64,000 bases of DNA from Escherichia coli (lineage in GTDB: Bacteria > Pseudomonadota > Gammaproteobacteria > Enterobacterales > Enterobacteriaceae), in NCBI RefSeq assembly GCF_013315695.1, contig NZ_CP054353.1; one strand, written 5' to 3'. Below are positions 2,213-42,533 of this stretch, in pieces. The position numbers were made by a program, and so were the translations under genes. Under the pieces are notes generated by a model, which made no database searches, was not told the origin of the DNA, and saw only the letters and a list, made by a program, of their open reading frames with translations. The stretch's first letter is position 1. Every line of letters begins with the position of its first letter.

Positions 2213-2440
2213 CGTTAGATTGCCTGATGCGCTACGCTTATCAGGCCTACGAGGATCGTGCAATATATTGATTTTGCAAGATTGTGTAGGCCGGATAAGG
2301 CGTTTACGCCGCATCTGGCAGTTGTGCGCCGATGCCAGATGCGACGCAGGCGCGTCTTATCATGCCTACGAAACAGCACTCACCTGTAGGCTGGATAAGG
2401 CGTTCACGCCGCATCCGGCATGAACAGCGTGCACAGAATC
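2213..2440. repeat. REP/BIME-like palindromic repeat cluster
   Basis: Repeated GCCGGATAAGGCGTT(T/C)ACGCCGCATC(C/T)GGCA and GATGCG..CTTATCAGGCCTAC motifs in the intergenic region. Confidence 0.7.
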
Positions 2441-2445
2441 CCCCA

Positions 2446-3555
<1,110 letters not shown>

Positions 3556-39678: not shown

Positions 39679-39894
39679 ATGAAATCCATGGATAAGTTAA
39701 CAACGGGTGTCGCCTATGGCACCTCAGCAGGTAGTGCCGGATACTGGTTTTTACAGCTGCTAGATAAAGTCACGCCCTCACAGTGGGCGGCAATTGGAGT
39801 GCTGGGTAGCCTGGTATTTGGCCTGCTGACGTACCTGACAAACCTTTATTTCAAGATTAAAGAAGATAAGCGCAAGGCTGCGAGAGGTGGATAA
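39679..39894 (+). CDS. essD: class II holin (phage-21 S21-like pinholin)
   Basis: 71 aa, two TM segments ([26 protein letters not shown]…), charged C-terminus. Confidence 0.85.
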
Positions 39895-40391
39895 TGCCTC
39901 CATCATTACGAAAAGCTGTTGCTGCTGCTATTGGTGGCGGGGCTATTGCTATAGCATCTGTGTTAATCACTGGCCCAAGTGGTAACGATGGTCTGGAAGG
40001 TGTGAGACATAATCCTTACAAAGACATAGTTGGTGTATGGACTGTATGTTACGGGCATACAGGAAAAGACATCATTCCCGGTAAAACGTATACCGAAGCA
40101 GAGTGCAAAGCCCTCCTGAATAAAGACCTTGCCACTGTCGCCAGACAAATTAACCCGTACATCAAAGTCGATATACCGGAAACAACGCGCGGCGCTCTTT
40201 ACTCGTTCGTCTACAACGTGGGTGCTGGCAATTTCAGAACATCGACGCTTCTTCGCAAAATCAACCAGGGCGATATCAAAGGCGCATGTGACCAGCTACG
40301 TCGCTGGACATACGCTGGCGGTAAGCAATGGAAAGGGCTGATGACTCGCCGTGAGATTGAGCGTGAAGTCTGTTTGTGGGGGCAGCAATGA
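39894..40391 (+). CDS. rrrD: SAR endolysin (T4 lysozyme-type muramidase with N-terminal signal-anchor-release domain)
   Basis: 165 aa; Gly/Ala-rich SAR segment [20 protein letters not shown] followed by lysozyme fold. Confidence 0.85.
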
Positions 40392-40825
40392 GCAGGTTAA
40401 CCGCGATTATCTCCGCTCTGGTTATCTGCATCATCGTCTGTCTGTCATGGGCTGTTAATCATTACCGTGATAACGCCATTACCTATAAAGAACAGCGCGA
40501 TAAAGCCACGTACATCATCGCTGACATGCAGAAGCGTCAACGTGACGTAGCAGAACTCGATGCCAGATATACAAAGGAGCTTGCTGATGCTAACGCGACT
40601 ATCGAAAGTCTCCGTGCTGATGTTTCTGCTGGGCGTAAGCGCCTGCAAGTCGCCGCCACCTGTGCAAAGTCAACGACCGGAGCCAGCGGCATGGGCGATG
40701 GAGAAAGCCCAGGACTTACAGCAGATGCTGAACTCAATTATTACCGTCTCCGAAGTGGAATCGACAAGATAACCGCGCAGGTTAACTACCTGCAGGAATA
40801 CATCAGGACGCAATGCCTGAAATAA
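40376..40825 (+). CDS. rzpD: Rz-like i-spanin
   Basis: 149 aa; N-terminal TM then coiled coil; overlaps endolysin end. Confidence 0.8.
40560..40772 (+). CDS. rzoD: Rz1-like o-spanin lipoprotein embedded in the +1 frame of Rz
   Basis: Lipobox LLGVSAC followed by Pro-rich segment; fully nested in rzpD; true start probably an internal Met. Confidence 0.7.
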
Positions 40826-40886
40826 TTTTTTTGCAAATCACAAAGTCAATTTAATGAGCCTCGCGATGCGGGGCTTTTTGCAATAA

Positions 40887-40911
40887 ATGCGTACCGCAAC
40901 GCATGTTTTTT
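40887..40911 (+). terminator. weak terminator-like hairpin after the spanin genes
   Basis: ATGCGT-ACCGCA-ACGCAT followed by GTTTTTT. Confidence 0.3.
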
Positions 40912-41026
40912 ACACCGAACCTGCCCCTTTGGAATGGGCCTTTGAGGATACCAGTTAGTGCTGGCGAGCCTCGGTGGGCTGGTTTCCTGTGCGGCAAAGG
41001 TTCATTTCAAAGAGTAGGTACACGCT

Positions 41027-41524
41027 ATGAAATCATTAACCCTCTTCAATCAACCAATTCGTATCGGTGAAGATGGCATGATCTGCCTCACTGATATGTG
41101 GAAAGCCAGTGGTAAAAGTGAATCTGAATCGCCTTACCACTACCTGCGAAACAAGCAGACCAAAGAGTTCTTAGCCGAGCTGGAGAAAAACCACGAATCT
41201 GTGGTTTTTACTGAGCGCGGTGTACACGGTGGAACATATGGCGGGAAGTTTGTTGCTTACGATTATGCGGCTTGGTTAAACCCCGGGTTCAAGTACGCGG
41301 CCTATAAAGTCCTCGATGACTACTTCACCGGAGAACTTCAGCATCGCAACAGCTTAAGTGCGCAGCTCAACATGAAATGTCATGAGTTTGACCAGAAGAA
41401 AGACATGGCGAGCTTCTGCGGACAAGGGCTGGCAGCATGGCGCTATACGAAGCCAGTGTTGGTCGCTGAGATTAACTCCCTGGCTAACCAGCTGCAGATT
41501 ACGATCCCCGGGCTTCCGGGATGA
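41027..41524 (+). CDS. KilA-N domain protein (165 aa)
   Basis: N-terminal KilA-N/APSES-like signature (…ICLTDMWKASGK… ; …YDYAAWLNPGFKYA…). Confidence 0.55.
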   Translation: MKSLTLFNQPIRIGEDGMICLTDMWKASGKSESESPYHYLRNKQTKEFLAELEKNHESVVFTERGVHGGTYGGKFVAYDYAAWLNPGFKYAAYKVLDDYFTGELQHRNSLSAQLNMKCHEFDQKKDMASFCGQGLAAWRYTKPVLVAEINSLANQLQITIPGLPG

Positions 41525-41778
41525 GTGATCGTGTTATTGAATGCGCCTCCAGAGCGGGGCGCGACTTCTCAGAGTTCATGAAAGGCGAGAAGGGCATGAT
41601 GGAAGCATTGGCCTCGGTGGATGAGTTTGGCGAGCAGCTGCGCCTCAACGGCTGTGTCAATCATCACTTTGTTAGCTACATGATGCGGAACTCGATCATG
41701 CAGGCATTCATGGACATGGCAAAAGCCGAGAGGAAAGAAGAGCGCCGGCGTAAGCGAGCGGAAGCAAAAGCGAAGTAG
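41521..41778 (+). CDS. hypothetical protein (85 aa), translationally coupled to the KilA-N gene
   Basis: ATGA start/stop overlap; Lys/Arg/Glu-rich C-terminal tail. Confidence 0.4.
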   Translation: MSDRVIECASRAGRDFSEFMKGEKGMMEALASVDEFGEQLRLNGCVNHHFVSYMMRNSIMQAFMDMAKAERKEERRRKRAEAKAK

Positions 41779-42263
41779 CCATTACAAAGCCTATCTACGG
41801 GTGGGCTTGATAATGGCTTATACCCTACACGGGATAACTTAACTGATATCCCTTTTAAAGGATAAAGGTATTCAAGCCTGACACATCATGCGCTGTATCG
41901 TCGCCGTGTTCCCGTATTAACAGAGACCGTAGCCCGACGGGGAACTCCTTCTGCGCGAGTGTGCGGGAATAATCAAAAACGATGCACACCGGGGTTACCG
42001 GGTACACATATTTCATCATGCCAGCGAGTCCGGTTCTGGCACGGAAGAAACCGGACGTTATGATTTAGTGCGGAAATATTTGTGTAGTGTTCTGAATGTT
42101 CTCAGTAAAGAGTAATGAATTATCAAAGGTATAGTAATACCTTTTGTTTTCGTGGATATTTGTAATCCATCTGAAAACCCCTGCTGTAGCAAGATTTTTC
42201 CTGTATTCGTAAAATGATAACTCTCCTGATTTGAATCCTTTTAAGGTGGCTTCTATAAGGCAT

Positions 42264-42476
42264 TTATTTTTTTGAAAATCTTACATTTACAACCTTACCC
42301 TGTCCTTTTATTAAAACCGTATTATCGTTTTCAAGAACAAGATGAATATTCTCTGTGGCTAAATAGTAAATGTAATGTGAGACATTGTGACGTTTTAGTT
42401 CAGAATAAAACCAGTGATAGTTTAAATTATTTCGCACTTTATCGAATATTTGTTTAAAAATGGCAACCTGAGCCAT
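42264..42476 (-). CDS. hypothetical small protein (about 70 aa) in an AT-rich island
   Basis: Likely start at the second Met (MAQVAIF…) preceded by GGAAGG; GC content well below surroundings. Confidence 0.4.
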
Positions 42477-42533
42477 TGTAGTACCTTCCATGTGATATGA
42501 GGGGGCGTAGTCTGCACGATTATCTAGATTGCT

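Follow-up and report, generated by a model that had tools for sequence, protein, structure and literature searches.

In T-even phages the homing-endonuclease genes I-TevI, mobE and segB are controlled by hairpins that sequester the ribosome binding site (RBS) and by upstream terminators (reviewed in PMC2988022), and in Gifsy-1 the isrK-orf45-anrP mRNA is transcribed yet translationally silent through RNA structure (Hershko-Shalev et al. 2016; PMC4825925). Some of the P22-like 'ant morons' have no arc and need another control mechanism (Casjens and co-workers; PMC2629481). In the Bro network (Iyer, Koonin and Aravind 2002; domain list per PMC10111431), N-terminal KilA-N, Bro-N, pRha and P22_AR_N domains are mixed promiscuously with C-terminal ORF11CD3, P63C, ANT and T5orf172 domains. 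Here we describe a locus in which a long, structured RNA leader precedes two coupled genes, the first coding for a KilA-N protein (A) and the second for an 85-residue protein (B). It lies in a lambdoid prophage of Escherichia coli, within a 64,000-nucleotide stretch of contig NZ_CP054353.1 (assembly GCF_013315695.1), referred to as the window. Over the stretch the prophage is 99.8% identical to Escherichia phage PhiR49_1 (from ECOR13); a Genome Research 2025 paper on Chi-rich lambdoid phages, considered as the source of PhiR49_1, is without mention of PhiR49 or KilA.

Leader, A and B together form an accessory cassette carried in the late operon. On balance we favor the view that this is a three-part Bro/KilA-N cassette of a Q-dependent late operon, in which the leader acts as a lock and the genes provide a late DNA-binding regulator. 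The genes for A and B have been catalogued before, while the leader is apparently undescribed and is absent from Rfam. More tentatively, we propose that it is the first known member of a class of pseudoknotted cis-regulatory RNAs, so far undescribed and spread across the Enterobacterales, that serve as triggered locks before accessory or selfish genes of late operons, and that B is a new module of the Bro network.

The leader occupies most of the spacer between Rz and the open reading frame (ORF) of A; there is no ORF between these genes, and a crude consensus scan found no promoter-like site on the plus strand in leaders of three types, that of the window included. There are several striking features. 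First, what had been noted from the sequence as two weak terminator-like hairpins are indeed present and followed by T-runs, but they are neither weak nor incidental, being the first elements of a conserved structured leader. In all contexts the cassette begins at its 5′ end with hairpin 1, whose stem sequence differs between them, and its equivalents score as intrinsic terminators in HK620 and at locus L091. Second, in the long imperfect stem-loop that follows hairpin 2 (Table 1) the Shine-Dalgarno region of A, GAGTAGG at 41012–41018, is paired to an upstream strand containing CCTTT, and in every variant it is the Shine-Dalgarno sequence that makes up the 3′ strand of the stem, at a fixed distance from the start codon. 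Third, the whole leader has a minimum free energy of −71.5 kcal/mol (z = −3.56), and the same architecture emerges when at least five sequence types, which are about 50–60% identical, are folded independently to minimum energy.

The structure is also supported by covariation. MAFFT plus RNAalifold recovered the central helix only, because that alignment is not structure-aware, and covariance models were used. A model made from the window type alone (R1) retrieved other types but missed the HK97/Klebsiella type and that of locus L093, both of which are found unseeded by the second-generation model (R2) at E values of about 1e-5. With alignments fitted to the model, which favors structure, 90.5% of cells are paired in the first alignment, 21 of the 38 pairs have double changes, and the covariation score is 0.446 as against at most 0.10 for slid partners. 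In an independent set of 36 sequences, which come from about 30 other species and had no part in model building, 90.8% of cells are paired and 28 of the 38 pairs have double changes; not one of 500 shuffles reaches the observed value, and slid partners give 6–10. That the signal is real is indicated by the controls with slid partners and by the folds computed independently from single sequences. Many of the conserved positions are G-U pairs, on the sense strand only.

A pseudoknot ties the two parts of the leader together. In the window the loop of hairpin 2 (CCGCA, 40894–40898) is complementary to UGCGG at 40990–40994 in the internal loop of the long stem, and five to seven contiguous Watson-Crick pairs can form in all 12 leader variants compared, with nine different core sequences. 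Non-cognate combinations of loop and internal loop have a mean of 2.9 pairs, and only 7 of 126 reach five. Automated extraction found at least five pairs in 105 of 121 IMG/VR instances, and in the independent genomes 28 of 36 have at least five (compared to 6% of non-cognate pairs), most of the failures being mis-picked hairpins or alignment gaps. Within a single body type, the loop changes UCACAC, UCUCAC and UCGCA are matched by the internal loops GUGUGA, GUGAGA and UGCGA. These tests used the loops only, as whole-hairpin regions are blurred by shared GCGC stems.

Rfam 15 has nothing better than E = 1 over the window leader when searched at E ≤ 10 (isrJ, rimP and DUF805b), and no match over the leaders of seven other loci at E ≤ 0.5; a GlsR20 match at the A/B junction (E 0.036) is far below its gathering score. 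The non-significant isrJ match (18.5 bits, E 1.7; 40810–40877) spans hairpin 1. In Gifsy-1, isrJ is just downstream of the antirepressor-like gene anrP, and its terminator hairpin may be related as a cassette-boundary element.

Leaders of this kind are present in about 30 species of Enterobacterales, covering the Enterobacteriaceae, Erwiniaceae, Yersiniaceae, Hafniaceae and Morganellaceae; in E. coli C3, for example, one precedes a Rha-family gene after Rz. Pattern matches in other phyla, put down to chance, were not confirmed by the model. A pattern search of IMG/VR for one subtype identified at least 120 stretches. The genes downstream of these one-subtype leaders are most often of the KilA-N+ORF11CD3 (31) and KilA-N+P63C (25) architectures, followed by a tellurite-resistance-like protein (PHROG 632; 17), Ant of the P22_AR_N type (11), Rha-like proteins (11), other Ant/Rha types (9), HNH endonucleases (8) and B-like+T5orf172 proteins (3), with single occurrences of a 187-residue A-type KilA-N+ORF11CD3 protein and of a 491-residue protein. 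Leader and gene types are shuffled; for example, the leader of HK97 gp73 resembles that of a Klebsiella A-type gene.

Some leaders occur close together. Loci L221, L223, L229, L230 and L244 each have two model matches about 200–1300 nt apart, and in Edwardsiella and Arsenophonus there are pairs with a spacing of about 200–290 nt (L221 12851–13278, L230 1328–1755 and L229 3150–3653), implying very short or empty cassettes in an array-like arrangement. At locus L086 (4800–5730; GCA_046521305.1) a B-like+T5orf172 gene and a KilA-N+P63C gene are each situated behind a terminator hairpin and a GC-rich structure ending at the Shine-Dalgarno sequence; these elements are not detected by R2 and may be distant analogues of the leader. 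At L091 (486–533, plus strand) there is an Rfam int-alpA match just below the gathering score (34.3 bits against 35.8; E 0.002). Immediately after it comes an HNH_3 endonuclease gene that has been inserted among tail genes, so that here a different structured RNA stands before an inserted selfish gene.

Alignment of the spacer across contexts shows that the leader travels with the genes. In nearly all of 80 IMG/VR loci, which are the best-ranked matches to the query and all have a B that is 100% identical, an intact A immediately precedes B with the same ATGA overlap, and only a few have a truncated copy of A; this marks the two as more than chance ORFs. The approximately 200-bp upstream spacer is kept with both genes while the neighbors vary: Rz is 50–99% identical, the R lysozyme 31–100%, and the types of Nu1/terminase small subunit differ. 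We regard A, B and the spacer as a cassette because they stay together whatever the type of Rz, lysozyme or terminase alongside. Of 5426 complete E. coli genomes, 377 (7%) contain at least 80% of the block from 40826 to 41778 and 1321 contain parts of it, whereas many lambdoid phages with the same lysis and terminase genes lack the pair. The location is not restricted to the lysis region, as A and B are among the tail genes of Klebsiella phage RAH1 (identity 77% for A and about 70% for B) and in tail-gene clusters of other prophages, one of them of myovirus type, and at locus L009 three such units are stacked after Rz. The sequence-only reading of the pair as an independent accessory cassette thus survives in part: it is accessory, with its own spacer retained as the flanks change, but it is probably not independently expressed, given the lack of a promoter-like site, the terminator upstream and the buried Shine-Dalgarno sequence. 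The same applies to the moron definition (Juhala et al. 2000), which fits in the variable presence between conserved late genes and the several insertion contexts, but not in the possession of a promoter and a downstream terminator, since a plus-strand sigma-70-like site is lacking from the three leader types scanned and the terminator precedes the genes.

Rearranged forms of the cassette are also found. In a deletion derivative at locus L094 (2880–3010) the 5′ two-thirds of the leader are joined to the last approximately 14 codons of a KilA-N+P63C gene, followed by an intact B homologue. Locus L076 (1564–2236), like some prophages, has a leader and a 188-residue P22_AR_N/ORF11CD3-like 'Ant' gene between lysozyme and Rz and a second leader with A and B after Rz, and therefore contains two locked Bro cassettes in one lysis region.

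Protein A has 165 residues and matches Pfam KilA-N (PF04383) over most of the domain (residues 9–101, model positions 8–106 of 107, E 1.8e-15), as had been suggested from the sequence, together with a second domain not named at that time, ORF11CD3 (PF10549), which is full-length (residues 109–161, model positions 1–54 of 54, E 4e-13). This KilA-N+ORF11CD3 composition is that of a Bro-network protein; ORF11CD3-like C-terminal regions are also found on pRha-type and P22_AR_N-type proteins, and KilA-N also with P63C. Public records name A a KilA-N domain-containing protein, and it matches PHROG 129 and 10441. An AlphaFold2 (AF2) model has a mixed beta/alpha region (residues 1–84, beta-beta-alpha-alpha-alpha-beta-beta-alpha, at a predicted local distance difference test score (pLDDT) of about 70–87) followed by helices at 86–130 and 132–156, the ORF11CD3 region being a helical hairpin that probably mediates oligomerization or partner binding. 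In a word-indexed search the homologues of A are from Enterobacterales only, and truncated copies are frequent. PDB sequence searches and NCBIfam gave no match for A or B, nor did Foldseek give a significant match in the PDB for a model of A and B fused through a linker (predicted template modelling score (pTM) 0.43). Neither protein has a membrane segment, a terminase-like domain or, in Pfam, a nuclease domain, and neither matches a toxin-antitoxin family in PADLOC, NCBIfam or Pfam; in the absence of a promoter-like site, the coupling is the only trait seen that resembles type II toxin-antitoxin systems.

The record of the Pasteurellaceae phage Actinobacillus phage vB_Apl-pPE4 (locus L085, PP818812) has an A that is 96% identical followed by just the first 22 codons of B, and A can thus stand alone. 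The same record contains, at 430–598 and within 2300–3070, two enterobacterial-type leaders, one leading into a tellurite-resistance-like gene and the other into A, which suggests either a very recent transfer or a mixed assembly.

Protein B matches no Pfam domain and over its full length belongs to a family of unknown function, PHROG 875 (E 3e-54), so that it stays unassigned in function, as first described. The AF2 model is confident (pLDDT 93.7, pTM 0.74) and is a three-helix bundle (residues 3–20, 26–42 and 48–84) with a long, basic C-terminal helix. A profile search found 20 representatives of the family among 1.84 billion proteins, and relatives in a word-indexed search (identity at least 64%) are in Enterobacterales only. 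Two motifs are conserved, ASRxGRDFSxF towards the N-terminus and GCxxHHF in the loop that leads into helix 3. A zinc site formed by C8, C45, H48 and H49 was considered and dropped, C8 being Ser or Ala in the distant homologues P0122 and P0133, and a PADLOC match to QatB is at noise level only.

The start codon of B lies on the stop codon of A (ATGA), confirming the proposed overlap. There is no spaced Shine-Dalgarno sequence for B by reading of the sequence, and a hairpin abuts its start codon (Table 1); overlap, hairpin and the lack of a Shine-Dalgarno sequence of its own make it likely that B is translated by termination-reinitiation after the upstream gene. The genes are coupled, as originally supposed, but B is not dedicated to A. 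All 11 contexts of B homologues examined have a Bro-network gene upstream (in one case fused next to it). This gene is of the KilA-N+ORF11CD3 type in the window, RAH1, L093 and L095, and of the KilA-N+P63C type in HK97 (gp73) and mEp234, where the copies of B are near-identical, as well as at L091 and L096 and at 14 of 21 further loci; distant copies at L087 and L090 follow pRha or pRha+ANT genes inside Arc/Arc/antirepressor clusters adjoining a tailspike gene. The distant homologue P0133 (PHROG 4284) combines a B-like N-terminal region with a T5orf172/MUG113 nuclease-like domain in one fused protein, and its gene sits beside a KilA-N+P63C gene. By its recurrence beside or fused with network domains in different architectures, B is a companion module of the Bro network and not a private partner of A. 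The occurrence of homologues with their own start behind unrelated upstream genes also shows that A and B are not fragments of a single gene.

In the 3′ part of B there is an antisense sigma-70-like promoter match (9 of 12 positions; 41722–41695, minus strand) that recurs in HK620 (L004 4202–4175) and in the divergent homologue at L091 (4279–4251). It could drive an antisense RNA across A and B, or be due to chance.

Table 1. Coordinates of the cassette, its leader and the surrounding late genes in the window.
Feature	Position	Strand	Remarks
Holin S	39679–39894	+	
Lysozyme R	39894–40391	+	
Rz	40376–40825	+	Rz1 embedded in Rz
Spacer Rz to ORF A			201 bp; leader part 40858–41019
Hairpin 1	40858–40879	+	7-bp stem GCCTCGC/GCGGGGC, loop GAT, then TTTTT; hairpin proper 40858–40874; read from sequence
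Hairpin 2	40887–40911	+	ATGCGT-ACCGCA-ACGCAT (40887–40904), then T-run in window variant; listed terminator-like
Long imperfect stem-loop	40919–41019	+	about 100 nt
P1	40919–40924:41014–41019	+	
P2	40927–40944:40995–41012	+	
P3	40945–40956:40977–40988	+	
Apical hairpin	40960–40969	+	
3′ internal loop	40989–40994	+	GUGCGG
ORF A	41027–41524	+	165 aa; HK620 hkbK
Hairpin before ORF B	41507–41520	+	CCCGG-GCTT-CCGGG; adjoins start codon of B; read from sequence
ORF B	41521–41778	+	85 aa; HK620 hkbL
Nu1	from 43156		minus-strand genes between ORF B and Nu1
Terminase A	from 43676		

The genes on either side are those of a lambdoid late region (Table 1). A and B are on the late strand after holin, lysozyme and Rz/Rz1 (39679–40825), in agreement with the post-spanin position assigned from the sequence; the comparison drawn with bor of lambda holds for this position and is positional only. 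Downstream, a ybcV-like gene on the minus strand (42065–42491) that codes for 136 residues in PhiR49_1 is interrupted in the window by an extra T in a T-run near 42267, resulting in ORFs of 75 (42264–42491) and 46 (42123–42263) residues; the gene may be a pseudogene, or the extra T an error of homopolymer sequencing.

These observations suggest how a locked cassette might operate. Hairpin 1 would, by analogy with lambda biology, stop polymerase not modified by Q, such that the cassette is silent in the lysogen, while Q-modified polymerase would read through to give an mRNA that is born translationally closed. Hairpin 2 and the approximately 100-nt stem-loop, tied by the pseudoknot, bury the Shine-Dalgarno sequence of A and would permit little translation even on late transcripts until a trigger opens or cleaves the structure, candidates being RNase III, a trans-acting RNA or a protein. 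The KilA-N domain of the A thus produced would bind nucleic acid, the ORF11CD3 hairpin following it, and B, which has no RBS of its own, would depend solely on ribosomes that have just completed the upstream gene. From domain identity, annotation transfer and the stringency of the lock we infer that A, possibly with B, may act as a DNA-binding regulator of the antirepressor/Rha/KilA kind. The double lock would make sense if mis-expression of A does harm, as we assume. KilA of phage P1 is lethal, and this and the tight control are the sole basis for the assumed toxicity. We found no functional study of the A/B pair in the literature.

Several points weigh against a regulatory cassette of this type. 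First, the labels 'transcriptional regulator' and 'anti-repressor' of the matching PHROGs are annotation transfer. Second, the release route of the T-even genes, a promoter inside the hairpin, was looked for in the leaders and not found. Third, the leader also precedes genes outside the Bro network (for the tellurite-resistance-like protein, HNH endonucleases and the 491-residue protein) and so says little about the specific function of A. Fourth, the near-identical copies of B after unrelated upstream C-terminal domains, as in HK97 gp73/mEp234 compared to A, argue against a specific ORF11CD3–B interface, and the pTM of 0.43 means that the fused A–B model carries no interface information.

The third of these points leads to a serious alternative, or complement, to a regulatory function, which we nonetheless think unlikely as a full account: that the cassette is a selfish mobile unit comparable to free-standing homing-endonuclease genes, with a leader that limits damage to the operon and doubles as a homology patch, and with little gain for the phage. 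The leader is shared with HNH endonucleases and with B-like+T5orf172 (GIY-YIG-like) genes, leaders and gene types are shuffled, cassettes occur in tandem (L009, and L221, L223, L229, L230 and L244), A is frequently truncated and deletion derivatives such as L094 exist, and the T-even homing-endonuclease genes are under the same two-layer control (PMC2988022). Nevertheless, A and B are without a nuclease domain, B is 100% identical in the 80 loci (though these are the best-ranked matches to the query), and intact pairs are present in 7% of E. coli genomes, which suggests purifying selection.

Less probable still, and in our judgment improbable, is a role in prophage defense or superinfection exclusion of the BstA kind, in which KilA-N would sense the DNA of an invading phage and abort infection. 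BstA is the one functionally characterized KilA-N phage protein that we found in the literature (PMC8585504), the prophage accessory position would be appropriate, and PADLOC has a weak match of A to PDC-S22, a candidate system (E 1.2e-8; residues 60–90, inside the KilA-N domain). However, no BstA model of PADLOC is matched, and such a function needs expression in the lysogen, where the upstream terminator, the buried RBS and the lack of a plus-strand promoter-like site stand in its way. Moreover, the cassette is found equally in virulent-looking late clusters and tail operons.

It is very doubtful that the folded element acts as DNA, for example as a single-stranded recombination site similar to attC of integrons. 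Its structure is conserved beyond sequence, it is at the boundaries of cassettes, and cassettes occur in arrays, all of which would fit such a site. The conserved G-U pairs on the sense strand only, the identity of the 3′ stem strand with the Shine-Dalgarno sequence at its fixed spacing, and a loop-to-internal-loop pseudoknot typical of RNA tertiary structure argue instead for an RNA, and no integrase or recombinase gene is seen beside the cassette in the examined loci, although no systematic search was made. Finally, an auxiliary role of A and B in lysis or DNA packaging is hardly credible: the window pair is between Rz and the terminase genes, and the HK97-like pair is just upstream of an HNH endonuclease gene by the terminase region, but pairs are also inside siphovirus and myovirus tail clusters and beside tailspike genes, and missing from many lambdoid phages with the same lysis and terminase genes, and both proteins lack membrane segments and terminase-like domains.

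Among phage accessory proteins without a tested role, those of the Bro/KilA-N kind are some of the most common, and a leader that appears to lock them suggests harmfulness as the reason why KilA-N genes are kept silent. The leader is a candidate for the missing control of the arc-less 'ant morons', and searching for it provides a handle for finding prophage accessory cassettes without a protein search. B, for its part, is a small and tractable protein with which to start Bro-network biochemistry.

The closest relatives of the pair are in phages that have already been described. HK620 hkbK/hkbL, the 'kilA' and hypothetical genes of the Stx2 phages 1717 and 2851, and the 'KilA-N-ORF11CD3' and hypothetical genes of PhiR49_1 are the same two genes at 95–100% identity, in the same order, with the same overlap and after Rz, and their records carry only the names 'unknown', 'hypothetical' or domain-based ones. 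HK97 gp73 and HK97p61 (and likewise gp58/gp59 of mEp234) are similar in that a KilA-N gene and then a B homologue follow Rz behind the same kind of leader. The B homologues of the mEp phages are 95–97% identical to B, while the HK97 copy diverges after residue 54, and gp73 shares only KilA-N with A (23% identity), having a P63C-type C-terminal region, like L091 and L096, rather than ORF11CD3. BstA (PMC8585504) also has an N-terminal KilA-N domain in a prophage-encoded protein, but A is shorter, with another C-terminal domain and a late-gene context as opposed to expression in the lysogen.

With respect to control, the immI region of P22 (mnt, arc, ant, sar) and the 'ant morons' also have Bro-network/antirepressor genes in a late operon under tight multi-layer control, and distant B homologues are located inside Arc/Arc/antirepressor/pRha clusters beside a tailspike gene. 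In the window, however, there is no Arc/Mnt repressor gene beside A and no promoter-like site, Arc genes being present only at the distant loci L087, L090 and L086, and control appears to be by a terminator and RNA structure rather than by protein repressors and antisense RNA. The isrK-orf45-anrP region of Gifsy-1 likewise places an antirepressor-like late-region gene behind a terminator hairpin, but has an upstream small ORF that is lacking here, and its trans-acting short RNA has no demonstrated counterpart; neither this region nor the T-even elements are homologous to the leader, and with Gifsy-1 there is no likeness of sequence or of structure. Homology to IsrK itself was rejected, as Rfam isrK has no match in the window, R2 finds nothing in Gifsy-1, and AnrP is dissimilar to A; the anti-sRNAs (antagonists of small RNAs) AgvB and AsxR of enterohemorrhagic E. 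coli prophages were set aside because of their different place, downstream of pR′. The T-even homing-endonuclease genes are similar in being accessory genes, in many cases for nucleases, inside essential operons silenced by a terminator and a stable Shine-Dalgarno hairpin, and the leader described here also serves HNH endonuclease genes. The T-even hairpins, however, are short and are bypassed by a late promoter inside the hairpin, whereas the window element, in which no internal promoter-like site is seen, extends over about 165 nt and is held together by a covarying pseudoknot.

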